Assembly (NCBI GenBank): GCA_001724265.1
Contig: MEDY01000444.1
Location: 1 to 41,704, forward strand
Length of the DNA stretch: 41,704 nucleotides
DNA from: Rhizaria sp. SCN 62-66
Taxonomy: Eukaryota
Reading direction: 5' to 3'
Part shown: positions 5,826 through 23,493 of the stretch, in pieces
Position numbering within the stretch: the stretch's first letter is position 1
How the letters are laid out: the number at the start of each line of letters is the position of its first letter
Translations under genes and position numbers: made by a program
The notes under the pieces: generated by a model
What the model was told of the DNA's origin: nothing
Databases searched by the model: none
What the model saw: only the letters and a program-made list of their open reading frames with translations

Positions 5826-8158
5826 TTAATCAAAGAGCTTAGGTTTGCTGCCACTCGACGTTTCCTTAGCGCCAACAGGCACGGCGCCGCGCAACAGGCT
5901 TACCGAGCACGTGCTCGTTAAAGACGATAAACCATGGTGTGTCGAGCGGACCCTAGTTAGTGTTATCAAAGGAGACGCAGCTGTTCCCATGTCATACGTT
6001 GCGGACTTGGCTTTCTTTAGGCGCGCAACACTAGGCGCTGTATATTCGCCGTAAACGATATCACTCTCGGGAAGCTGTAAAGATTTTTGGCACACAAGTA
6101 ATTATTTTCATAACTTTCGCGATAGTGATGCATATAAAACGTGACAAGTGGCGGTGTACCTGTTTTTGATTGACCCCTTGGCACAAAACACGTGTGCACC
6201 TCAACTCAAAACATCCTACGACGCACCTCCTTGCGAAAGTGTGCAGTGTTGCAAGGAAACTTTTCGTTATCAAGTCGAATTATGCCGAAACGGGTCGACA
6301 AGTCCTGCTCAGAATCTGAAAAGTGCAGCGATATTGCCACATCTTTGTTTTTGACACTGCTGCGGAGACTGAGTTGCATGAAAAGGCGCGCTTTGGCCTG
6401 CAATATAGCTAAGACAGCTGGAGATAGCGGACCCTCAGTACGACTGGAGATGAGTTCAACGAAATAGGGATACTGACGTACTGAGACCCGCTTAGGGTGT
6501 CCGCTCTTCTCTAAAATGCAGGCGATGTGCCCGTCAAGCTCACTTCTCCAGTGCCAGCGCACTTTTGGCTGCACAAAGCCATGAAGCTCTGCAATAGTTT
6601 GCAGGCGCAGCTGCTATGTTTTGGCTGTGTCAGGTGCAATCACATCCATGCCTGCAAGCAGTGCGCGGAGCTGCGTGAGTTCACGCAGTGCGTCGCCCTC
6701 TTGCGCGCAGTCCTCGTAGCGCAGCAGGTCCAGCACCTGCAGCCCGTGGCAGTCGATGAACTCGGCTACAAACGAGTTCCGTGGCTCAACACCGCGTTCG
6801 CGCAATGAGCAGGCGGGTGAGGTGCTATCAGCACTAATCATGACTCGCAAGACGCGTAGAATACGTGTAATGCCAGCCTGTGCCAAGCCAGCATCTTCTG
6901 CTTCCTGATTGCATGCGTACAACACAACCAGCTTCAGAAATAAGCAACAAAGTCTCACAACACCGCTCACCCGAAGCTTGTGCGCTGCAGAAATAATGTT
7001 AAAAGCTGTGCTCAAAATGTTGTCGCAAAGCGTCATAAAGCTGCTAAGCAACAGCATATACTCCGTGTCATGATCATGATGAGGAGTCATCGCGCAGTAA
7101 ATGGTGTCGACAGTATACTTGAAAAACCGTGAATTCAAGATACGCTGGGCGAATTTGGGAAATTGGACTGCTAAGCGCGCAAGAATACGAAGGAGTGACG
7201 CCGAATCCTAAGATCTAATCTATTCCCATTGACAAGGAGCAATTTGTGTGTGCATTTGGGCAAGCCGATGATCAGTAAAGCCCAGCGCCAGCGCGGTGTC
7301 GTCGAATAAGTCAAGAGCGCGAACAAGCAAGCGCACTATGTCTGCGTAGGTAATCTCTGTCAAAGGCTCGAACTCATCACTGGCAGCAAAATCTGCTATG
7401 TCACCGCGGCGCCGCGCGTTATCTGCGCTGTCGTCTCCGGGGCACGAGAATATAAAGAAAAGAGCATCGTAAGCGATCATTTTGATATCGCGACTGTACG
7501 TGTCAAACGTTTCGTAAGACCTAACGACGTTCCGCAGGAGAGGAGCAAAGGTAAGCACGTCTGAATACGGAAGGCACGATGTTTCAGTAGTCTTGTTACT
7601 AGAGACAAGCGCACGGAGAGTTTTGGTGAGAGCTTTGTGGTAAATAACGCCCTGGTAGGTCGCAAAATGCGTGGGAGCACAAGTTCGTAGCTCCATATCA
7701 CGCATGTGCGCCAGCAAGTGCGTCACAGCATTAAGACGGGCGCGCATGCCAAGGGGAGACTCAATGACAATGTAGTGTACAACCTTGAGAATCTTAGAGG
7801 CGATGCAATAATGGTAGTTCTGGGGAAGATGAAGAAGAGCTTTCATCAGCATCTCGACAACATTGTTTTCAGCGAGGAGATCACTGCCTTTTGCGCAGTC
7901 AGTCACAGCTAGAAAAAAATGAAGCATGTTCTCAAAGTGTGTTGTTGCAGCGCCTGTTCTGTACGCGTCGCTGGCTTGCTCGAGCGACTGCAGAAGAAGC
8001 ATGACAACGCCGCTCTCAACGATGACTTCGATATCACCACCCTCAAACAGCTCGTCTACCGTATCATTAAGCTCCGTCAATGCAGTTTCATCTGTTACTA
8101 AAGCTGTAATCCGGCTCACAGCAACATGGAAACGATACACAGCTTTGTTGTCCTTCAT
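5826..8158 (-). CDS. Divergent armadillo-repeat (importin-alpha-like) protein with in-frame TAGs at 7220-7222, 7208-7210 and 6614-6616. Probable intron 6075-6226; 5' end uncertain
   Basis: ORFs 7220..8209, 6614..7138 and 6206..6574 share one frame and are separated only by TAG. A donor gag|gtgcgt (6226) and acceptor ttacag|ctt (6075) join ORF 5826..6095 in phase 0, ending in TAA. The protein is colinear with the 35047..36480 protein (ERGVEPRNSFVAEFIDCHG vs AEGAQPRNVFLAAFFAAGG). Confidence 0.65.
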
Positions 8159-8915
8159 TAGACAGCGTTTTTCTGAGTCCAGATGCGTAAACAAGGCGCT
8201 GTTACACAAGCTTGAAGTATAAATCTGAGTTTTCTCTTGAATAAGTGATGTGCAACCAAAATAGGCTAGTAAAATACGGAGGTGCCGCTAGTATCAATTT
8301 GCATATGGTTGAATAAGTACCAGCCAGAAAATGAGATGGTGAGAGTGGACGGACTTCAAGTTGCGAAGGCTGCTCAATTGTTGTAGATGTAGCAAGGAAA
8401 TGTCGAGCAGAATAGGCGAAATCGCAAGAGCTTATTGGGACGCGTGCAGCTAAAAGAACGTTCTGTCGCGTCTCTTCATACACATTTGTAAGCGTGGTCA
8501 AGCTGAGTCGCGTACGCCCACAGCGCTCTCTTGCCAACAGAGGAGTCTTGAGACCAGGATCACAAGGTCTCAAATAGAAGTGTAAAAGCGTTTGCAGCGC
8601 TGCAGAAAAAAGGCGGTAAGGTTGACGTTACAATGCAAGTGGCAAGTGTTGATTTTAGACTCGCTTTGACTCCCATCACTGATCGAAGTTAAGCCGCACG
8701 AGAGAGGCCGGTTGAACTTGAACTGAAATGCTGCGAGCGCTATAAAAACACGGATTAATGAAAGCCAATCTATTGCTTCAACTGAGTTTAGTCATAAATA
8801 ACAAAGGCACTTTGTTGATTTTTTGTATCGCTTTTGTGTATTTCTTGAAGTCAATGTTCTCATGTTTATATCCTCGCTTTTGACGACTCCTTCCTCCAGA
8901 TCCTTCCCCCTCTAG

Positions 8916-11900
8916 ATGAGCACTGTCCCCCCATCCTCTGGACCGAGGGTATGTATGAAACAAAAATAATGTTCTGAAATAAGAAATTTAGTATATTTTT
9001 GTACTTGAAATTCAGTATTAATGTTCTTATGCGTCTTTTATTTCTCCTTGCTTTGTCGTTCTCAGATCCGGGACAGCACCCGCACCGACAACGGCACTGC
9101 GGTGCTGCTGTCGCGTACCGGGCTGGGCGGGACTGCCAATGAGCCCGCGCTAGTCTCCACTACAACCAAAATCACTGGATCGCACCCGCTGCCGCCCACG
9201 TCGGGGCTGGGCCGCGGCGGCGACGACCTCAAGTTCGATGACGCAGACGGCGACTACAGCGCCGCCCTGGCCCCTGTGCGTCTGCCGGCCGTGCCCAAGA
9301 CGCTCCCCGCGGTCCGCACCGCGCCGGTGCCTTCGGCGGCGGCTGTGCTGGAACACGCAGAGCGCCCCACAGCGCGCGACCGCTCGCACTCGCCCGCGCC
9401 GCTGAGCGTCACGGCCCCGGGCTCGCTAGACCGCGCGCCGGACCGCGGGACCTTCACGGCCACGATGCCGCGCGGCGTGTTCTCGCCCGCGCCCGTGGCA
9501 ATGCAGCCCTCGGCGGCGCCCGGCGCGCTGCAGCCGCCGTCGCTGGAGCGCGCGGCGGCCCGCGCGACGGAGCTGCTGTCGCCGCAGGAGCTGGAGCAGC
9601 GCGCGCAGCTGCGTTTCCAGCGCGACGTAGCGGAGCGCGCGCGCGAGGCCGCTGCCGAGGGCCGCCGCAGCGCCGTGCTGCCCGTGGGCGCCTCTTCGCG
9701 CGGCGTCTCGGACCCCTTCGCGGCGGCAGGCGGCGGCGCCGTCACGCGATCTTGGGGTGGCGACCGCGCGATGGTGCCGGCAGACTCGGCCTACTCTGGC
9801 GGACCAAAGGAGAGCGTTGCGCGCTCCTGGGCGCACCATAGTGAGGACGCGGGGGCTGCGGCGCCGAGCGGACGGCCCGGCACAATCGTAAGCACGAGCA
9901 CTGCAACTGTGATGACCAAGGGCGCCAAGCCAGTGCCGGTTTCGGCGACGGTGTCCACGGTCACCGAGCCCTTCCGGCCCCAGAGCGAGGACGCGTACAT
10001 CTCGAAGAACGCGCCGTCGCTCGGCGGCACTGCCGCGCTCGACGGCGGCTTCCAGCGCCTCAGCCAGCAGCATGACAAGCACGACAAGTACGACGCCGAC
10101 AGGAGCAAGAGCTCTGGCGGACTGATGAGCTGGTTGTGGGGCGGAGGCGGCGGCGGCGGCGCGCGCGCGGGCCGCGAGAAGAGCGACGCCGACTACAGCG
10201 CCGACGGCATCGGCACTAGCACGCGGCTGGCTGTCGCGCCCGCCAGCGCGCGCGCCACGTCCTCCGCCGCCGCCGCAGCGGCCGCGGCTGCGGCGGCCGA
10301 GGCCAGTCTGGCTGAGCACGAGCGTTGGCGTCAGCAGCAGGAGCTCGGCCGGCTTGAGCAGCACCAGTACTATCAGCAGCAGCAACAGCTCCAGCACCAG
10401 CAGCAACAGCAACATCAACAGCAACAGATGCAGCAGCAGCAACAGTGGCAGCAGGAGCAGCACAAACAGTTGCGGCGCGAACTGCAGCAGCGCCAGAGCC
10501 ACCGCGCCGAGCAAGAGCAACGCGCGCGCACCGCGAGCCTCCCTGTGCCACCGGGCAGCTCCGAGGCTGAGATTGCGAGCGACCAGCGAGAGAACTCGTG
10601 GATCTGGCAGTATCGCGAGCAGGCGGGCTACGGCCACCACTCCGGCGACGCTGTCGCTGACGGCGACCGCGAGCGTGAGCGCGAGCGTGAGAGCGAGCGC
10701 GAGCGCGAGCCGAGCGCGCTGCAGCGGGCGGTGCAGACGCTGAGCGGCAAGCACCGCGAGCAGAAGCGCGAGCGCGCCGGCTGGATGGGCTACTTAAACA
10801 CGCAGGCGGACTACGAAGACAGCGACACACTGCAGCGGCGCACGCACACTGAACAGCAGCAGCAACAAGAGCAACCGCGTCAGCAGCAACAGGAGCAGCA
10901 GTACCGTGACAACAAGGCTGCCGCCGAGGCCGGCGCGCGTTACGAGCAGGGGACGCAGCCGTTTTACTTCAAACAGCAAGAACGCGAGCTGCTGCGCCAA
11001 GAGCAAATGCAGCAGCAGCAACAGCAGCAGCAGCAGCAGCAGTCGTCGTTGCAGCGGACGCGGCAACAGCAGCACGGCTCGAGTTTCGACGGCTACGGGA
11101 GCTACTTTGGCTGGCGCGGCCCGGGCCCCGCAAACGAGGGCGCGGATCCACCGTACGGCCTCTCCGAGTCGCAGCTGGGCACGCTGACGCCGGAGCAGCT
11201 GCATGACATGGCGCATGGCAGCCACGAGGCGCGCCCGCGCTGGGTGAAGCTGGCGACCGGACACGGGCACGCAGACGGGCATGTCGGCGAGGTCCACGTC
11301 GATGTGCAGAACCTCTTTCCGCCCGGCTCGACGCGCGGACGCGCGCTGCCGCTGACGCTGCTGGACCGGCTGGCTGAGGCGTCGCCCGCGGAGCCCTGGT
11401 TTGACGACGGCACGGGGCTCTTCGCGGACACCACGTCAGTGTTGGAGCGGCTGACGGCGGCCCGCACGCGCGCGGCCGAGGTGTCCGCCGAGGGTGAGGT
11501 GCAACTCGAGCAGAGCCAGAACCGCGGGCTCGCGCCCAATGAGGTCGGGCCTGCCCGCATGCGCCGCTCGGAGCCCGCGGCCGCGCGGCAGATGGCGCTG
11601 GCGCAGTCGCAGGAAGACCTGGACCAGGCCGTGCGCGCGGTGCGGCGGGCGGCGCTGGCGACTTACGCGGGCGGCGCCCCGGGGCTCGAGACGCTGGGGC
11701 TGCTGGAGAAGCCCGTGCGCTCGATCAAGGTGCGCGACGTGGCGGCCGTGCTCGCGGAGCTGCCGCAGGGCGCGGTGCCCGAGCTGGCCGCGCTGGCCGC
11801 GATGCTGAGGGAGGACGAGCTGCCCGCGCCCGACGTCGCCGTCCGCGCGGCGGCCGCGGCGGGGCGCGCGTTCGGCACCCGGCACGCGGGCGCGCAGGGC

Positions 11901-14900
11901 GGCAGCGGCATCGGCCACGCTGAGGACGGCGCAGACACCATGAGCAACTACATCGCCGCAAACGTGCTTAAGCAAGGCGCGCGCGCCAGCGACAGCGCAA
12001 GTGCCGGCGAATACAAGAGCGACACGCGTGACACTCGTGACACGAGTAGCATGCGTGACAGGAGCAGCAGCCTTGGCGAGACGGTCGCAGGCGCGGCGCG
12101 CAGCGTCAGCAGCGCGGTGGGCAACGTCGGCAACGCAGTAGGCAACGCAACGGACATGGCGCGGCGCGAGCTCGAGTTGCGCTGGGACCAGGACCGCGCG
12201 ACGTGGGAGCAGTTTCAGCGCGAGCGCGAGCGCCAGCGCCTCAGCGCGCAGCGGCCTGACTTCACCGAGGACCAGACGCTCGACTTGCGGGACCGTGAGC
12301 GTCGTGATCGCGATGGCTCAGTGCGCAGTCAAGACCAGACACGGAGCCAGGGCGCGCTGCAGCTGTGGGAGCAAGGCGAACAGCAGTGGGTCGACGGCGC
12401 GCCCGTGCCTTTCACACGGCCGCCACCCAGCAGCAGCAGCAGCGCTGCGCAGAGCTCGCACCGCGACTCGGGAGATCCCAGTCTGAGCCACCGCCACCCG
12501 CACGGGCTGTTGGAGCGCATCAGCGACACGGTGAGTGGCGCCGCGGGCGCCATCAAGGATACCGCCGCCGGCGCCGCGGCCGTGTTGCTCGGCACCGAGC
12601 CCGTCGCAAGCAAGGTCGACGCCCACTCCAAGGCCGGCGAGTCCAAGGCTGGCGAGGTTGTAGGCGACGCGGCGCGCGCGGTCAAGAGCGCGGCCAAGGA
12701 CGCCGCGGGCGCCGTCAAGGATACCGTCAAGGACGCAGTCAGCGGCAGCCCGCTCGCCGAGGTCGCGGACGATGTCAAGAGCGCCGCCAAGTCGGTTGCG
12801 CGCGACGCCAAGAGCGCTGTATCCGACGCCGTCGGCGGTGCGGCGCAGACCGTAAAGCACGCAGCTCAGGACGCCGCGGGCGCAGTCAAGAGCGCGGTCA
12901 CCGACGCCGCCGATAGTGGCGGAGAGTCTCTGAGTGAGATGGCCAGCGATGCGATCGACAGCGCCAAAGCCACTGCCAAGAGCTTTGGAAAGAGCGTCGG
13001 CAAGGCTATCGGCCTCGGCGGCGGCAGCAACACGGCGGCGGACGCAGTGGGCTCTGCCGTTGACGCCGCTAATGGCGCCGCTAAGGGCGTTGCTAGGGAC
13101 GCGTCGCGCGCGGTTAAGGGCGCCGCCGCGGCCGTAACAGACGCAGTGGGCAACGCAGTGAGCGATAATGAGGACGCGCTGGCCGATGCGCGTGATGCCG
13201 TGTCCGACGTGGCGGCCGCGGTGACCGACGCTGCGGGCACGGCAACGCGCTCGCTCTCTGCCGCGGCACGCGGGGCCGCCGAGGCGCTAGCGCCCGCGCA
13301 TAAGGACGAGGGCTACTTGGCGGGGCTCTGGCGTAGCGCGCGCGAGAAGACCGAGGACGCGGTGGCCGACGTAGCCGCGGGCTCCGCCGGCCGCCGCGCC
13401 GCGCGCGAGCTGCAGGAGCAGGCGCGCGACGTGGCTACAGCGCTTAAGACCGCTGTCGGCGAGGCCGCGCAGTCGCCCGAGGGTCAGGCGGCGGCGCGCG
13501 AGGTGGCTGCAGCCGCCAAGGAGGTTGCGGGGGCTGTGCGCGAAGCCGCGTCGGCGTTCTCGCAGTCTGCGGGCGCCGCCGCGGGGGCTGCCGCGCCCGC
13601 GCTGGCCGCCGCGGCCGGGGAGGTTGCCCGCGGCGTCACCGCCATGACTGCGGCCGCAAAGGACGCCGCTAAGGACGTCGCCGCGGATGCCGCGCGCGAG
13701 GGTGCGGGCGCGGTTGCCGCTGCGGCTCGCGAGGGCGCGGCGGCGGTCAAGGAGGGCGCGGCGGCCGTGGGGGCTGGGGTGGCGCGCGCGGCCGACCGGG
13801 CGACCGCAGCCGCGGGCGACGCGGCGCGTGCGGTGCCCAGTGACGCGCGTATTAGGGACAGCGTGGAGGAGGCCAAGCGCAGCATCGGGCACCGCGTGCG
13901 TGAGTGGCTCTCGTTCAAGCGGCCCAAGGACGCCGGCGACAAAGGCAGGGACAGCGTCATCATGCGCGACAAGGGCACCGCCGTGACGGGCGCGATCGCA
14001 GACGCCGGCGCCGCCGCCAAGGAGGCTCTGGCCGACGCGGGCAAGAGCGTCAAGAGCGTGGCCCGCGACGTAGCAGACACTGTCACCCGTAGCGGCGGCG
14101 GCGGCGACGGCAGTCGCGCCGGTGAGAGGATTTCCGAGTCCGTCAAGGACACAGTCAAGGACGCCGCCGGCGCCGCTAAGGAGGCTGCCAAGGACGTCGC
14201 GGGCGCCGCCAAGGACGCCGTCAAAGACACGGCCCGCGGGCTTGCGCGCGACGCCAAGGGCGCCATGGCCGACGCCAAAGCCGCTGTGGCAGACTCAGCC
14301 GCCGCGGTGGCCGACCGGGCCAAGGGCGCCGTGGTCAGCGCGGCTGATACAGTTGCGAGGGACGTTAAGCAGGCCGCCGGCGCAGTCGCGGGCGAGGCCA
14401 AGGGCGCGGTGCAGAGCGCGGCGCGCTCGGTGGCCGACAGCATCGACACGCACAGCCACTTCCACAACCAGCTGCCGCAGCATCAACACGGCCAGCAGCC
14501 GCCGCAGCAGCAGCAGCGCCGCATCAGCGGCAACATGGGCGTGCGCGAGGACTACAGCGATGAGAAGGCGTACCTCGACGAGTACCGACACAACTTCCGG
14601 GGCGACTCCTACTTCCCACCCGAGGGCCCCGGCGCCGCGCCCGCGGGGGCACACAAGGTTGGGCTCTGGGAGCGTGTGCGACACCCCTTCGTCGGGGGCG
14701 GACACGCCGCCAAGCCCGCGCACGATACCAGCGCCACTGCAGCGGCGGCGGCAGCGGGCGCGGCGGCCGCGGCTGCCTCGTACAACGCCGACACGGCCAC
14801 TATGCGCGCGCAACAGCAACAGCAACAGTTACAGCAACAGCAGCAGCGGTTCGGCAGCGGTCACTACGGCTTCAACGCGTCTGACCAGGCGGCCGAGCGC

Positions 14901-15575
14901 GCCGAGTCCGCGTTGGCGACCGGCGCGGCCCCGCTGCCCGCGACGGCCTCAGCGGCGCTGGCCCGCGAGGCGCGGCTGGAGGACCTGGTTTCCGCCACGG
15001 CGGCCGGCTTCGACTTCGAGCCCGGAGACGCGGTGCCCGCGGGTGCGGCGGCGCGCGGCCAGGACCCGGGCTTCGCGGCCAGCAAGGCGGGACGCCACGG
15101 CATGCAGGAGGCGCTGGCCCGGGACGCGCCCGCGGCGGCGCCGCATGTGGCATTCCGGCTGGACGAAAGCGCGCCGCTCGAGGGCGTGCAGGCGCTGCGG
15201 CCGGAGCCCGTGGCCGTGCTGCGCGTGCGCGCGCCCAAGGCGAGCCAGGCCTCGCTGGGGCTGGCGCTGCTGACGTTGCCGGGCGCCGTGCGCGCGCGCC
15301 TCGCCTCGCCAGCCCCCGCCTCGCCTCATAGTAGTGGCGGGGACGGCAGCACAAGCTCCGAGGGCAGCGCACGCAGGGCCTGGCTCGAGGCGCGTCGCGG
15401 CGGCGCTGGTGGGGTCACCGACGGGGAGTCCGACAGCGACCCTCAGCTCAGCGACTGCGTCCACGATTATCAGGCGCAACAGCAGCAGGGGCAGCAGAAC
15501 AAGTGGAGCGATGACGATGACTATGACAACGGGGGCTCGCTGTCTGTGCGCTCAGCGGGACGCTTCGAGTGGTGA
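8916..15575 (+). CDS. Giant (~2180 aa) hydrophilic protein with polyQ tracts and an extended LEA group-3-like 11-mer amphipathic repeat region. Exons 8916-8948 and 9066-15575
   Basis: First exon MSTVPPSSGPR|gtatgt splices in phase 0 to ctcag|atc (9065/9066) of the 2184-aa ORF. Repeats include VKDAAGAAKEA AKDVAGAAKDA VKDTARGLARD AKGAMADAKAA. Stop is TGA. Confidence 0.75.
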
Positions 15576-17688: not shown

Positions 17689-17854
17689 CGTCGGGGAGCG
17701 ACGGGGCAGTGTGTGGGGGCCGTGCGACGCAGTGTACACCACTGGAGGCCCGACTAAGACCGGACGGTCTGGCCTTGACCACAGAGGGATTTTGCGAGGT
17801 ATGCGCTGCACAATGATGCGACTGATAAATAGAACTCAGATATATTATTTATTT

Positions 17855-17990
17855 CAGAAAAATACACATTGTCTGCAACTGGCGCAATATATGCCGCATT
17901 ATACTTGTAAATATGGGCTCTGATGCCTCCATTGCGAGGCACGGACCGAAAAATTTATGGCTCACTTTTTGGTCGCGCTTGCTATTTGTT
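17855..17990 (+). repeat. Left inverted repeat (~135 bp)
   Basis: Blocks cagaaaaatacacattgt / tctgcaactggcgcaatatatgc / tacttgtaaatatgggctctgatgcctc / tgcgaggcacggac / ggctcactttttggtcgcg recur in reverse-complement form, with few mismatches and in mirror order, at 22527-22753. Confidence 0.85.
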
Positions 17991-18370
17991 TATTTGCTCA
18001 GTCCAAGCTTGCGCGCACCTGCCGAAAGGTGATCGTCCAGCTCAAGCTGCTGTGGGGCCTGATAGCACAACTCAGAAGAAAGAAACCATTCAGTACGAAT
18101 AAACTGTTTAATTAAAGTGTTTTCATGCGACAATAGCATATCTAACGAATGTTTGATCGAGTTTTCAAGAAAAATAATGACGTGTTCAGTGCGTGCCGAA
18201 TTATTTTTCAAGTTGACTGGGAGGGGACGAGTTCGTGGACGGGACTCTATTAGATTTCTTTAAGTGCGCCATAACTTAATGCAACGTCAGTACAGCGAAC
18301 GCCTCTTTCAAGAGACCGCCCTCTCACATTGATGTGTATGTTTTTCTACGTATGTAATAGTCCTTTCGTC

Positions 18371-19991
18371 ATGGCAAAGACAACGCTCTGGCCGTGCGCG
18401 CCCGCTCGCCTCATCGACGCAAGCAACAGCGCTGCATGCAGCTCTGCTTCGGGCCCTCGTGCCCGCCCCTCCCCGGCGTCGAGCTTGGCAAAGCCCGCGG
18501 TCGCCAAGCCTGCGGCGGCGGCGGTTGCCACTACTGCCACCATCGCTGCAAAGGCACAGTACAAGACCAAAAGCACTAAGTCCGCTGCGGCCTTTGCTAT
18601 CGCCGCATCTGTCACCGGGTGGATCCTGGTTACAGGAAGCTCCAAGAAGAGCCAAGCTCAAGTGAAGAAGCGTTGCCTCGACGCTGTTGAGGCTGACGCG
18701 GTCGCTAAGGCGACCGCTGAGAGCAACGCGGAGGCCGCGAAGGTCAAGTACCGCGAGGTGCTGCGCGCAGCCGAGCTGGAGAAAGCTACTCGTCAACAGC
18801 TGCACCTTGCTGCCGAGAGGAAATTCGCGGCCGCCCGTGCCAAGAAGCGCGAGAAGATGGTACGAACTAGACACGTTCTCAATGACATGGAATCCATCGT
18901 GAACAGTTGAACATCGTTTACCGTATTGTGTCTAAATTTAGAATAACATGTACGACTTTTGTTTGAAAGAGGACACCATTGAAGCATTGTCCATATGCCG
19001 TTTAACTCATTTCTGTTTTTGTCGTTTGTTCTCCTCCTTTTTCGCCCGTGTCGTGTCTGCGCTTCTTTTTTTTCTCCGTCTCTTTCCACACACATTCGTT
19101 ATTTCCCTCTTTCTTTTCTACGTTCTATCTTTTACGCATTATTAGGCTCTTAAGCGTGCCATTACGCGCAGCCTCGCAGATGGCAACGTGAAGGCATCTG
19201 TGCCCTTTACCAGCGTTGCCCCTGGCAAGGCTGCTGCCACCACCCTCGTTGGCTCCGTCGCCGTCTCTGTTGGCTCCGCCGCCGTCGCCACCACCGCCAT
19301 CGCCGTTACTGGTGCCGATTCTACGGGTGCTGCAACTGCTAATGGTTCGGTCATTGGCGCCTCCACCACTGGTGGTGGTGTGCTCTTGGCTGGCGCTTCC
19401 AAGCGCGCGATCAAAGCGCCGACACCGTTGGCCGTCAAGCTGCCGGCCAAGGCGCGAGCTGACCGGGCAGTCGAGGCGCGTCGCCGCGCTGGAATCTGGG
19501 CATTGCTGCGCACGCTTCCGCGCCCGGTGTACGGCTGGAGGCTCAAGGCGGGCCTGGAGCGCCTGGCGCGCCTGCGTGCCCAGGCAGAGAAACGCAACGC
19601 ACGTGTTCATACAATGCGCATCATGCCATGCAAGTCCGTGAGGGGGTTGTCTGCGTCGTATTCAAGCGGGCATACTTGCCCCTCTTCGACATCCACACTG
19701 ACCATGGACGCAGACGCTGTTATTACCACTGCCAGCCTTGGCGCCGGGCTGCGGCCTGTTTCACCCACTGGATCTGCTCCTAGCCGGAGCTGCGGTAAGC
19801 GCAAGTTGCCGGATCCAAATCCATCCGGTGCCGACAAAAAAAGTCGGCCTGCGCCGGTCACCCACGGGCGCGTTGGTGACAAAAACAATGACGATGAAGA
19901 CGGCGATGATGGTGGCAGTGGCGGCGACGACGGTGATGATGGAGACGAGGAGGACCACGGCAACGGTGGCGACGACGATGAGGACAATTGA
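18371..19991 (+). CDS. N-terminal part of the element gene: basic/Ala-rich coiled coil and acidic tract. Exons 18371-18859 and 19146-19991; probably continues into the downstream frame via a +1 shift at ~19989
   Basis: atg|gtacga (18860) to attag|gct (19145) joins KKREKM to ALKRAITRS in phase 0 across a pyrimidine-rich intron. The Asp/Glu tract runs up to AAT-TGA and resumes one base later. Confidence 0.55.
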
Positions 19992-22488
19992 CGAGGATGA
20001 AGACGAGGATGACGAGGATGAGGACGGGGTCGAGGACGAGTGTGTCGTAATCACCACTGTCACGGTCGCTGTCAGTCGGCCCGTCATTTCAGGTCCTGTC
20101 CGCACTGCAACTGATGATTCTGCGTCTGGTTCAGACTCGGTAATCGAGCTACTGTTCGACTCGGGGGAGGAATCCACGCCTGCCGCCGATGGACGTGTTT
20201 GCGCTCACAGCCGCACGGGGCCTGGTCAGGTCACGACCCTTGCCGCCCACCAGCCATCTGCTCACAGTCATGACCCGCAAGCCCATGCCCGCGGTCACAC
20301 AGGCGATGCTCACGGTCACAGTGAATGTGCACACGGCCACGGTCAGCATGCTCACCGTCACGACCTGCAAGCACACGCCTACAGTCACACTGCCCCCTCA
20401 TCAACTCGTAGCCACGACACAGCGTCGTTTGCAACGTCAAGCTCTCTGAGTCCCGTTGTGGCTAACGGTCGTTTTACGTCCTCGGTCTCTGCACCCGGTC
20501 CCGTCGCTCCCGTTGCCTCAGCTACGGCCCGCGGCTCGAGTGCTGTATCTATGAGCGGTCACAACGGGGACTTTACAACCAACGACAACTCTGGCGACGA
20601 GGACCGTGGTCTCGCTAGCCCGGTGAATTTTAATGCGTTATTGTCGGCTCACCTCGCGAAGGCCGCAGCCGCAGCCGCAAGACAAGTCGCGGGCACATGT
20701 GCAGGTGCACGTCAAGGCGCAGGAGCAGTCCAAGGCACCGCGGCTGGGAATGCGCAACGGGCAGGTCGCGCTGGTGGTCCCACTTTTGATTCACACGTCC
20801 GCTCCAAACAGTGGAGCACTCGTAACCAAGACCAGCCGAGTCAGCTGCGGCTCACCGCCGAGGTCAAGCGCTGGTTCAGGTGTGACGCATGTCCACACGA
20901 GTTTGAGGCGGCGGTATACAGCATCGCACGCGGGTCATGGTGCCCTTTTTGCGCAAGCAAGCGGCTCTGTGACGACGAGACCTGCCGGTTCTGCTTCGAC
21001 CGAAGTTTCGCCTCGCACGATCGCGCCAAACTGTGGAGCACTCGTAACCCGGTCCAGCCGCGGCAGGTAGCGCGCGGTGCCCGCGCTTTTTTCTGGTTCA
21101 GCTGCGACTCCTGTGGGCATGAGTTTCAGTCAAAGCTGAGCAAGGTCTCGAGTGGGTCGTGGTGCAAATACTGTGCTGGGCTTGCGCTCTGTGACGATGA
21201 CAACTGTCAGACCTGCCTCGACCGAAGTTTCGCCTCGCACGAACGCGCCCTACAGTGGAGCACTCGGAACCAGGTCCAGCCGCGGCAGTTAGCGTTGCAT
21301 TCCGGGACTAAGCACTGGTTCAAGTGCGACAAGTGTAGTCACTAGTTTGATGCGATTATATGCAATGTTGTGCGCGGGCAGTGGTGTCGGTACTGCGCTG
21401 GACTAGCGCGCTGCCCAGACGACTGTCAGACTTGCTTTGACCGAAGTTTCGCCGCGAACCCCCGCTCACGACATTGGAGCACTCGTAACCAGGTCCAGCC
21501 GTGGCAGGTAGCGCGCGGTTCGGCGATGAGGTGCTGGTTCGACTGCGATGATTGTCATCACTAGTTTGATGCGGAACTGAGGGAAGTCACGCTTGGCCAA
21601 TGGTGTCCGTTTTGCCGCGGTTACCGACTCTGCGACGCCGCCGACTGCGATTTCTGTTTCAATCGCAGTTTTGCCTGTCACCGCCGTTCGAAGCAGTGGA
21701 GCAGTCGTAACGTGGACCAGCCACGGCAGCTTTCACTCTACGCCAATATCAAACGATGGTTTCGCTGTGACAAGTGTGATCACTAGTTCGAATCGGACCT
21801 GGGCCACGTCGCAAGTGGGTCATGGTGCAAATACTGTGCTGGGCTGGAGATCTGCGGCGCTCGAGCTTGTCAACCGTGCTTTCAACGGTCGTTTGCCGGA
21901 GGACCGTACGCGTTGCACTGGTCGGCTCGTAACCCCGTCGAAGCGCACACCGTCAGGATTTCTAACTCCAGCGAGATGTATGAGTTTGTTTGCGACAACA
22001 ATCATAGGTTTAGGGCAACTCCCCATGGGATCACCTACATGCGCTCGTGGTGCCCTCAGTGCAGGCGCACAACAGCGGCCATGCTTTGCACATTCCTAAC
22101 TGAGTGTGGTTTCAAGCCCGAGTCAGAGAAGATGTTCCCCTTCTCCGGCAGGGCACGCTATGATTTTTACATCGAAGATCACAATATCGTCGTCGAGCTT
22201 GACGGCGCACAGCACCACGTTGCGGTCCCTCACTTCAACCGTGACCGCACACTCGAAGATATCCAGAGGATTGACAGCTTAAAAGAGCATGATCTCACTT
22301 CCAACGGAATCCGGTACGTGCGCATCGTACAGGAGTGTGTGCGCGCCAACATCGGCGAATGGAAGCGTACCCTGCGCGACTATATCACCGGCAGTGAGTC
22401 TGGACACACTCTGGTGTCGTCCCAATACCGCCACCTCCGTGCTCTCACCGAGAAGGTCCAATCGGATGAGGAATTTCGCCATTTTTAA
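19990..22488 (+). CDS. Zinc-ribbon (DUF4379-like) tandem-repeat protein with a C-terminal Vsr/DUF559-like PD-(D/E)xK endonuclease. In-frame TAGs at 21343, 21562 and 21784; stop TAA
   Basis: Five full and one partial ~74-aa repeats of WSxRN...WFxCDxCxH-x-F...G-x-WCxxC...CDDxxCxxCFDRSFA, followed by RYDFYIEDHNIVVELDGAQHH...D.LK...NGIRYVRI. ORFs 19738..21345, 21370..21564 and 21913..22488 are all in one frame, broken only by TAG. Confidence 0.85.
20782..22065 (+). repeat. Coding tandem repeat with a ~222-nt unit (zinc-ribbon modules)
   Basis: The middle codon of the H-x-F motif lies at 20899 (GAG), 21121 (GAG), 21343 (TAG), 21562 (TAG), 21784 (TAG) and 22006 (AGG). Spacings are 222, 222, 219, 222 and 222 nt. 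Confidence 0.9.
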
Positions 22489-22526
22489 TGCACTGAACAG
22501 GTCTAACCATTGATGGCCGCTAACGC

Positions 22527-22753
22527 AACAAGTAACCAAACGCGACCAAAGAGTGAGCCTGTAATTTTTGCAGTCCGTGCCTCGCACTCCCTCCTGATGA
22601 GGCATCAGAGCCCATATTTACAAGTACAATATATATATATATTCTTGTACTTGTAAATATGGGCTATGATGCCTCACCATGTACAATGCGGCAGACAGCA
22701 TATATTGCGCCAGTTGCAGACAACAACCCAAGTTAACAATGTGTATTTTTCTG
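22527..22753 (-). repeat. Right inverted repeat with internal insertions and a 32-bp-arm hairpin (22598-22676)
   Basis: Reverse complement of 17855-17990 with several insertions. The hairpin arms tgaggcatcagagcccatatttacaagtacaa and ttgtacttgtaaatatgggctatgatgcctca (1 mismatch) flank a (TA)n loop. Confidence 0.85.
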
Positions 22754-23493
22754 TTATAACCATCGGTCCTAGGGGTCCAGAGGGATTTCGTTCGAATGAA
22801 GTTGGGAACAAAATACAGATTTGTGACTTGTGACTTGAATTCTCGCTGTAACGGGCTGGAACACAAATATATTCATACCACCACATACGCCAGCGTAAGC
22901 ACTGGACCTGTTGGACCGAAAAATGATTCATTTTTTAAATATTTTATTTTTTATTTAAAAAAAAATTAAAAAATCATTAATTGGCATAGGCATTATTTCT
23001 TGTGCTGTGGTGGCGGACAGGCCAGCAGGGGCCAATCTTTGGATTTCTTGTTGGCTCGTTCAGCTGTGGACAGTGAGTATTTCCTTAAACCTATGTGTTT
23101 AAATGTTTACATTTTATCTGTTCTTTATTTGAATTGAGCTGTTCGCTTTGCTTATAGTGCAGTGTGAGTGTGCCGTTTTTTGGGGCATTGACAAAAGACG
23201 GAAAGAAGCTCTCCTTTTTTGCCCAGCGCCATTTCCGGCATCTACGCGCCGTCAGTATCTTGTTTTGTGCACCACCCGAGCGTTAATTAACTAAAAAACA
23301 CCCTGTTTTTAATTTTTATACCAATTCGCGGCTCTTGTGGCGCGTAATTTACGTCTTCGACCTCCGCTCTCATCCTCGCACCCTTTCTCTTCGTCCCCGC
23401 TCCCTGTCTTTTTTCGTCCCTGCTCCCTGTCTCTGTTCGCCCCTGTCCCCTGACCCCTGTCCTCTCACGCACCCTGTTTGCTGTGCTTTGCAG

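Follow-up and report, generated by a model that had tools for sequence, protein, structure and literature searches.

The window analysed here, the entire contig MEDY01000444.1 (C444; 41,704 nt) of the eukaryotic assembly of Rhizaria sp. SCN 62-66 (34.9 Mb in 714 contigs), carries at 17855..22753 a cassette in which long degenerate inverted repeats enclose a gene for a zinc-array nuclease. This gene points strongly to a nuclear genetic code, probably a new one, in its protist host: three of its zinc modules contain an in-frame TAG, and TAG is almost certainly a sense codon in the host. The best explanation has two layers, in which UAG has been recoded, likely to glutamate, and the cassette is an old, immobile relic of a terminal inverted repeat (TIR) element; for the two layers taken jointly our preference is slight.

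The nuclease gene and its in-frame TAG codons

The gene and its parts are as follows (window coordinates, strand in brackets).

18371..18859 (+): predicted exon 1, 163 aa, Ala/Lys-rich, no family match (gene model)
18860..19145 (+): predicted spliceosomal intron, phase 0, GTACGA...TTAG, AT- and pyrimidine-rich; the donor resembles host introns
19146..22488 (+): predicted exon 2, with a low-complexity N-terminal part, zinc modules and nuclease, ending in TAA (gene model)
19731..20092 (+): segment 80-94% alike to a rearranged fragment of contig C161 (61859-62389), which lies ~3 kb from a DDE_3 remnant
20797..22065 (+): five DUF4379 treble-clef modules of 73-74 aa and a short sixth (Pfam, predicted fold)
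21343..21345 (+): in-frame TAG of module 3, at the H-x-F position (GAG in modules 1 and 2)
21562..21564 (+): in-frame TAG of module 4, same H-x-F position
21784..21786 (+): in-frame TAG of module 5, same H-x-F position
22054..22389 (+): PD-(D/E)XK nuclease domain of the Vsr/DUF559/EDxHD type, with D...ELDGAQH intact (motif, predicted fold, Pfam)

In the predicted fold of the C-terminal 563 residues (pLDDT 90), treble-clef modules recur and are joined to a nuclease domain, the latter matching Vsr (1vsr) and the homing endonuclease I-Bth0305I (3r3p) with TM-scores, by target length, of 0.59-0.77. The Pfam match to DUF559 is weak. The N-terminal parts had no match in ESM Atlas or Pfam, and no transposase family was matched in any frame of the gene. 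A preliminary description of this locus had recognised 5-6 zinc modules, a Vsr/DUF559-like nuclease and no transposase, all of which were borne out. It had also seen one long gene; this stands only if TAG is sense, and the three in-frame TAGs, the predicted intron and a one-base frame break in the assembly (near 19988, upstream of the zinc array) do not fit it as it was put.

The three TAGs share one position, which in the homologues holds E in 177 of 480 cases and Q in 14 of 480; among 160 related loci, none of the 461 module sites carries a stop. The zinc modules are 62-71% alike in DNA, every cysteine is kept, and nonsynonymous change is lower than synonymous change (pN < pS) in 10 of 10 module pairs. 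None of the 55 other codons in the zinc-nuclease region that are one step from a stop (CAG, CAA, TGG, CGA) is a stop. The divergence of the modules, their conserved cysteines, the pN < pS pattern and the 0/55 count therefore directed suspicion to the host code. C-to-T hypermutation as the origin of the three TAGs was rejected on the same count.

TAG as a sense codon in the host

Across 642 kb of host DNA we counted how often a coding-like frame stays open beyond each stop triplet, which gave 20/26 for TAG, 3/67 for TAA and 4/51 for TGA; in the first 442 kb of host DNA the respective figures were 11/32, 1/55 and 1/50. The frequency of TAG was 0.46 per 1000 codons. Judged from the sequence, TAA and TGA are retained as stops, and the host eRF1 gene and two ubiquitin genes end in TAA. 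The six TAG frames (6/26) that did not continue count against TAG as sense; one or two of them could be true ends.

A symmetric count of long open reading frames (ORFs) was set aside, because antisense frames inflate TGA (220, versus 60 for TAG). Lone TAGs within Pfam matches were dropped where shown to be splice acceptors (four) or where they opened the match and were presumed to be acceptors (three: a kinase on C77, a dynein on C390 and a kinesin on C108), and those in a UCH domain (C108) and two helicases (C13 and C132) were left out of the tally. Searches with SNF2, DHC_N2 and ABC revealed no lone TAG. Three of 66 TAG windows matched Pfam, none informatively.

Two host genes bear directly on the reading of UAG.

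Contig C84, 1489-1561 of the excised stretch (-): tRNA(CUA) gene with Glu-type acceptor and T stems (pattern, Rfam 58 bits)
Contig C63, ~102,970-103,740 (-): host eRF1 gene, the only eRF1 found

The tRNA screen gave 42 pattern hits, 38 of which were excised and scanned (the other four were duplicate Ile/Leu-type hits), and a single tRNA(CUA) gene was found among the 42. It is identical to host tRNA-Glu(CTC) at 47/73 positions, to Glu(TTC) at 40/73 and to Gln(CTG) at 33/73, and a TCCCA/TGGGA acceptor stem is common to it and both host Glu tRNAs. Pyrrolysine was rejected for this tRNA, being the label that ARAGORN gives to any CUA anticodon, while the stems are of the Glu type. No tRNA(UUA) was recognised among the 4 of 14 pattern hits that were excised, the other ten being judged by eye.

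The eRF1 gene itself holds an in-frame TAG, at a column occupied by Glu in 120/120 homologues; two other eRF1-like matches were pelota-like by reading. The protein carries the substitutions T32S, G57S, T58K and K130Q, and each original residue is present in 120/120 homologues. Thr32 of eRF1 hydrogen-bonds the G of UAG and is altered in Iotanema, according to PMC5304391.

The residue encoded by UAG

Glutamate is the probable residue, and we think it likely, with slightly less assurance, that a wastewater-type flagellate here uses an unreported nuclear code, in which UAG is read as Glu while both UAA and UGA still terminate. The alignable in-exon TAG events comprise five acidic, four Gln and four uninformative ones. 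The acidic events lie in eRF1 (E), the zinc modules (taken as one event), SUV3 (D), a kinase (D,D) and one paralogue family (E). Among the residues neighbouring TAG (39 sites), Gln is scarcer than beside Gln codons (p 0.009), its count lying between those for Gln and Glu codons; acidic residues are more frequent than beside Gln codons (p 0.019), and their count fits Glu.

The chief competing possibility, that UAG encodes Gln, is ambiguous between Glu and Gln, or underwent a past shift from Gln to Glu, is on the whole unlikely; Gln alone is quite improbable, as is a mixed or shifted state. Several observations nevertheless favour it and weigh against Glu. The four Gln events fall in NEK1, host ubiquitins, one kinase and paralogues (Q,Q); the kinase column holds Q in 6/16 close homologues and E in 1/16. 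A PDB search for one host kinase gave no match. Several TAGs stand within poly-Q runs, and there are more Gln neighbours than beside Glu codons (p 0.001). An all-residue context score placed Leu first and did not separate E and Q. Gln is also the commoner known variant (Iotanema, two phyllopharyngean ciliates). Moreover, only one invariant TAG column was found, that of eRF1 (Glu), and its value as evidence is weakened, an E-to-Q change being possible, because the host eRF1 departs at 7/100 other invariant columns. Against Gln stand this same invariant Glu column, the Glu-type stems of the tRNA, the five acidic-aligned sites and the scarcity of Gln neighbours relative to Gln codons.

Recoding to glutamate could have begun with a copy of a tRNA-Glu gene that gained a CUA anticodon, while T32S, G57S and T58K would have weakened the recognition of UAG by eRF1. 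Rare TAG codons would then arise from GAG, and by C-to-T change from CAG at tolerant sites; this double origin would explain the mixed Glu/Gln contexts. As the reading frame of the only eRF1 gene found contains a UAG where the homologues always have Glu, the supply of release factor might hinge on UAG read-through and form a feedback loop, a doubtful proposal made by analogy. A comparable feedback loop acts on the bacterial release factor RF2.

Under the standard code, the gene would be a pseudogene in which one nonsense change was copied between modules; the frame break, which if real would truncate the protein ahead of the zinc array, favours this, as do public proteins P0015 and P0121 (five contigs in all), which end at the first TAG, but they read through the break (their continuity may reflect other assemblies or a correction by the gene caller), and the idea is largely refuted by TAG read-through in host genes, the tRNA(CUA), the TAG within the only eRF1 found and the 29-38% divergence of three modules that keep every cysteine.

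If the recoding of UAG to glutamate is true, the host, with its tRNA gene, its Thr32 change and its very low TAG frequency, would let one study in nature how an eRF1 comes to ignore only UAG and what an early, ambiguous stage of recoding looks like, and the captured nuclease, with a recoded codon in three modules, is no longer translatable in a standard-code host. The eRF1 residues that ignore UAG alone may bear on the engineering of amber suppression. Standard gene callers truncate proteins of this host at TAG.

Inverted repeats and boundaries of the cassette

The cassette is bounded by the following features.

17849..17990 (+): left inverted-repeat arm, with CAG at 17855; no other copy in the assembly (block and gapped alignment)
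22527..22759 (-): right inverted-repeat arm, with insertions, and CTG at 22751-22753 (block and gapped alignment)
22595..22679 (no strand): hairpin with 35-bp arms within the right arm, holding a third copy of the sub-terminal motif

The ~135-bp degenerate inverted repeats described previously are real: the arms pair in five gap-free blocks of 24-33 nt with 85-100% identity, and their gapped alignment scores 161, compared with a shuffle maximum of 64 (n=200). The right arm is ~90 nt longer than the left and has the extra hairpin; arm-to-arm insertions amount to about 16, 7, 57 and 10 nt. The CAG...CTG termini without a clear target-site duplication were confirmed as well, the junctions reading TT/CAG...CTG/TT, with TT and not TA on either side. 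The arms lie 4.5 kb apart with the gene between them, start with CAG and contain repeated sub-terminal motifs.

Relatives of the gene in giant viruses

The homologues of the gene are giant-virus proteins with 30-42% identity, and a few lie in algal genomes. Among the 160 related loci, 73 distinct ones had both flanks; an inverted repeat of some kind surrounds the homologous gene in 14 of these, and one short TIR family bounds it in 7, over spans of 4.6-5.9 kb. Transposase-like ORFs scanned from the TIR-bounded loci matched DDE_3 in 4/4 cases, one of them tested as IS630, and the TnpB/Fanzor zinc-finger domain scored above the cut-off in two of four long ORFs of the viral elements. A single-protein scan of viral contigs gave no match. 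Since viral loci bounded by TIRs carry transposase and Fanzor genes, the family is a known transposon cargo in giant viruses, and the window cassette resembles an emptied cargo element. The earlier suggestion that the cassette is cargo of a TIR element or viral remnant thus gains support. Viral Mariners with three genes (Bao and Jurka) fit the nuclease-bearing viral elements (PMC3627910).

The viral TIR turns up often in IMG/VR, in at least 134 stretches, and the spans that it bounds on contigs there range from 139 bp to >5 kb; the short ones suggest derivatives of the miniature inverted-repeat transposable element (MITE) type. This giant-virus TIR family is widespread and occurs with an IS630 transposase, a Fanzor-like gene and, as an accessory gene, the DUF4379+Vsr nuclease. 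The cassette arms are unrelated to it in sequence, and the exact TIR motif of the arms had 0 matches in IMG/VR.

Origin and fate of the cassette

The cassette probably goes back to a giant virus and persists as an immobile, host-adapted relic, not as an active jumping gene; that it is now immobile is very probable, and that its arms are transposon ends is rather likely. We call it host-adapted because it has a host-type intron and a GC content of 57% in the gene region (viral loci, 19-45%). The gene forms a long unsupported branch in a tree built from the nuclease regions of 70 out of 225 sequences.

Some results tell against a viral transposon relic. No close donor was present in the tree, the best identity being 37%. 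There is no target-site duplication, TA or other clean one, at the cassette ends. The assembly contains neither a second copy of the arms (BLAST; two 23-26-nt patterns, three mismatches) nor an autonomous partner with the same ends, with seven DDE_3 remnants present and the TIR motifs occurring at the cassette locus only. The arms are read as transposon ends from their shape alone, and local fold-backs (palindromes of 90-140 bp) exist at other repeat-rich loci of the genome.

Accordingly, the arms might instead be a local fold-back duplication in a gap littered with transposons, next to a horizontally acquired and domesticated viral nuclease, which we consider a less likely but serious alternative. 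The single copy, the lack of a target-site duplication, the intron, the host codon use, the right-arm hairpin and the palindromes elsewhere agree with a fold-back; the 4.5-kb separation of arms that enclose the gene, the CAG start and the repeated sub-terminal motifs argue against it, as does the occurrence of the gene family in viral TIR elements of 4.6-5.9 kb.

A bolder reading of the preliminary description, in which the cassette is new and active and either owes its spread to the zinc-array nuclease that it encodes (by homing-like copy repair) or is still mobilised in trans, is now very unlikely. The intact nuclease motif, purifying selection among the modules, the fold kinship with I-Bth0305I and the indication of near-identical sequence in sequencing runs from three studies, of which one may be the source, would be compatible with activity, and repeats collapse in short-read assemblies. 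However, DNA, protein and pattern searches showed the gene to be single-copy in the assembly; a BLAST check for copy number, shared boundaries and autonomous partners, as had been proposed, returned gene and repeat once each and no partner. The arms are degenerate, with large indels and ends unlike the viral TIRs and IMG/VR sequences, there is no duplication, the assembly has a frame break, and an active family of the same genome appears at many contig ends where the cassette arms do not. Of the contrary case allowed for previously, a single-copy gene between insertions of a common dispersed repeat, the first part was found; the arms are not copies of such a repeat. Taken as a new mobile element, the cassette makes a weak case, with arms that are real, a cargo that is already known and a single copy.

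The relic may have arisen as an old non-autonomous TIR element, since immobilised, in which a nuclease of the giant-virus type was fused behind a low-complexity N-terminus. By analogy with the accessory nucleases of viral Mariner-Fanzor transposons, whose role is itself presumed, the treble-clef array would bind DNA and the Vsr/EDxHD domain would cut it. Long residence in the host could have brought the host-like GC content, the intron and TAG codons in three modules that have since diverged by 29-38%. Any past movement would have depended on a transposase supplied in trans; no partner sharing the cassette ends was found in the assembly. The cassette matters less than the code; as a likely relic, it connects the nucleus of a protist with the nucleases that Mariner elements of giant viruses carry as cargo.

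Neighbouring repeats, assembly and host

Three repeat-like stretches lie in or beside the cassette, which occupies a repeat-rich intergenic gap.

17758..17792 (+): weak likeness to a family B end, holding cagagggattt, outside the inverted repeat (shuffle test)
18023..18256 (+): 3' end remnant of family C, a separate dispersed repeat, inside the cassette; 70-82% like five other loci
22759..22876 (+): degenerate end of family B, a separate pogo-like (DDE_1) family, abutting the right arm (BLAST, Pfam)

Short direct matches near the ends had been taken as end-related, which did not hold up. The 22778 copy of cagagggattt belongs to the family B end, and the 17782 copy resembles this end weakly (24/2000 shuffles score as high, for a motif picked post hoc). 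The ggaccgaaaaat copy at 17943 sits within the left arm; its partner copy is at 22913. Family B recurs at 10 further places in the assembly. Eight of these are contig ends without a difference over 96-97 nt, and one copy has a DDE_1 remnant (7432-7848, minus strand, of the excised stretch); the family appears by sequence to be young and pogo-like (DDE_1). The contig-end copies are mostly preceded by T-N-A, with the body collapsed or missing from the assembly. The 230-bp family C remnant within the cassette had been overlooked. Two copies of this family terminate in CTG followed by TA, and it is presumably Tc1/mariner-like.

The genes of the window are GC-rich and the gaps AT-rich, and its host genes include Sec10, WD40 and EF-hand proteins (Pfam). 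As dynein AAA_6 gave 17 matches over 11 contigs of the assembly, the host would be a flagellated protist; close named relatives are absent among its matches, the best named matches of its kinesins being at most 67% and the best matches of its eRF1 72%. Near-identical sequence (share 0.83-0.99) is indicated in four runs of three studies, one possibly the source itself, and three of the four bear the label of a bioreactor or wastewater metagenome.

The ubiquitin of the host diverges to an unusual degree and begins with MSMQ, which we take to resemble the rhizarian polyubiquitin insertion; no polyubiquitin junction was recognised among nine ubiquitin matches. A ubiquitin-like domain with an in-frame TAG (C681:2862-3377) is joined to another domain, presumably akin to a viral intramolecular chaperone. 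In the window, 6209-8293 (-) is a 695-codon frame with three in-frame TAGs, from an unnamed paralogue family with members on C89 and C23, and 9021-15575 (+) is a low-complexity ORF of 2184 aa, Gln-rich with 11-residue Ala/Lys/Asp repeats, which has no Pfam match and no TAG. Elsewhere, tRNA genes form inverted pairs around transposon debris (C161:60522-61590 and C704:20453-22684); the latter gap is abundant in TACTAGTA runs.

Comparison with known systems

The cassette shares with viral Mariner-Fanzor elements of the PGv-1 type the plan of a TIR element of ~5 kb with an accessory endonuclease. Those elements carry IS630/Mariner transposase and Fanzor genes, both missing from the cassette, whose arms are unrelated, much longer and without a TA duplication; its gene has an intron and a long N-terminal extension, and its nuclease is of the DUF4379+Vsr type, not GIY-YIG or EcoRII-like. 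With Tc1/mariner or pogo elements it has terminal inverted repeats in common, but no TA duplication and no copies or partner with shared ends. Module architecture, catalytic motif and fold are common to the window gene and the giant-virus 'restriction endonuclease' DUF4379+DUF559 proteins (Pacmanvirus, Terrestrivirus, Port-miou virus, marseilleviruses), whereas the window gene is nuclear, GC-rich and spliced and uses TAG as sense. The modelled protein has the fold and the D...ExDGxxH motif of Vsr/EDxHD (DUF559) nucleases. The homing endonuclease I-Bth0305I is kin in fold. The cassette lies in an intergenic, repeat-rich gap.

As for the code, PMC11687900 describes UAG-only recodings to Leu, Gln and Ser, and UAA and UAG as almost always recoded jointly. 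The nuclear UAG-only cases given in PMC5304391 and PMC11687900 are the rhizarian exLh (Leu), Iotanema spirale (Gln), phyllopharyngean ciliates (Leu, Gln), Protocruzia tuzeti (Gln) and Scotinosphaera (Ser). UAG = Glu is recorded in PMC5304391 and PMC10553269 only with UAA also as sense, in peritrich ciliates and Blastocrithidia (UAR = Glu) and, with UAA = Lys, in Oligohymenophorea sp. PL0344 (UAG = Glu). The literature searched, outside of which lay most subscription papers and the supplements, yielded no code that reads UAG as Glu and keeps UAA and UGA for termination.

The host shares with UAG-only recodings a sense UAG, UAA as a stop and a tRNA with a CUA anticodon, and with Iotanema a changed Thr32 of eRF1. 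It differs from the known UAG-only codes in the residue, most likely Glu, and in that eRF1 itself holds a TAG; in the ciliates among them UAG is used in 78-91% of genes (PMC5304391, PMC11687900), whereas TAG is very rare here, at 0.46 per 1000 codons. With the UAG = Glu ciliates and Blastocrithidia it would share the reading of UAG as Glu by a tRNA-Glu-like tRNA(CUA); unlike in those organisms, where UAA is sense, TAA and TGA act as ordinary stops in the host, with a tRNA(UUA) not found by pattern.

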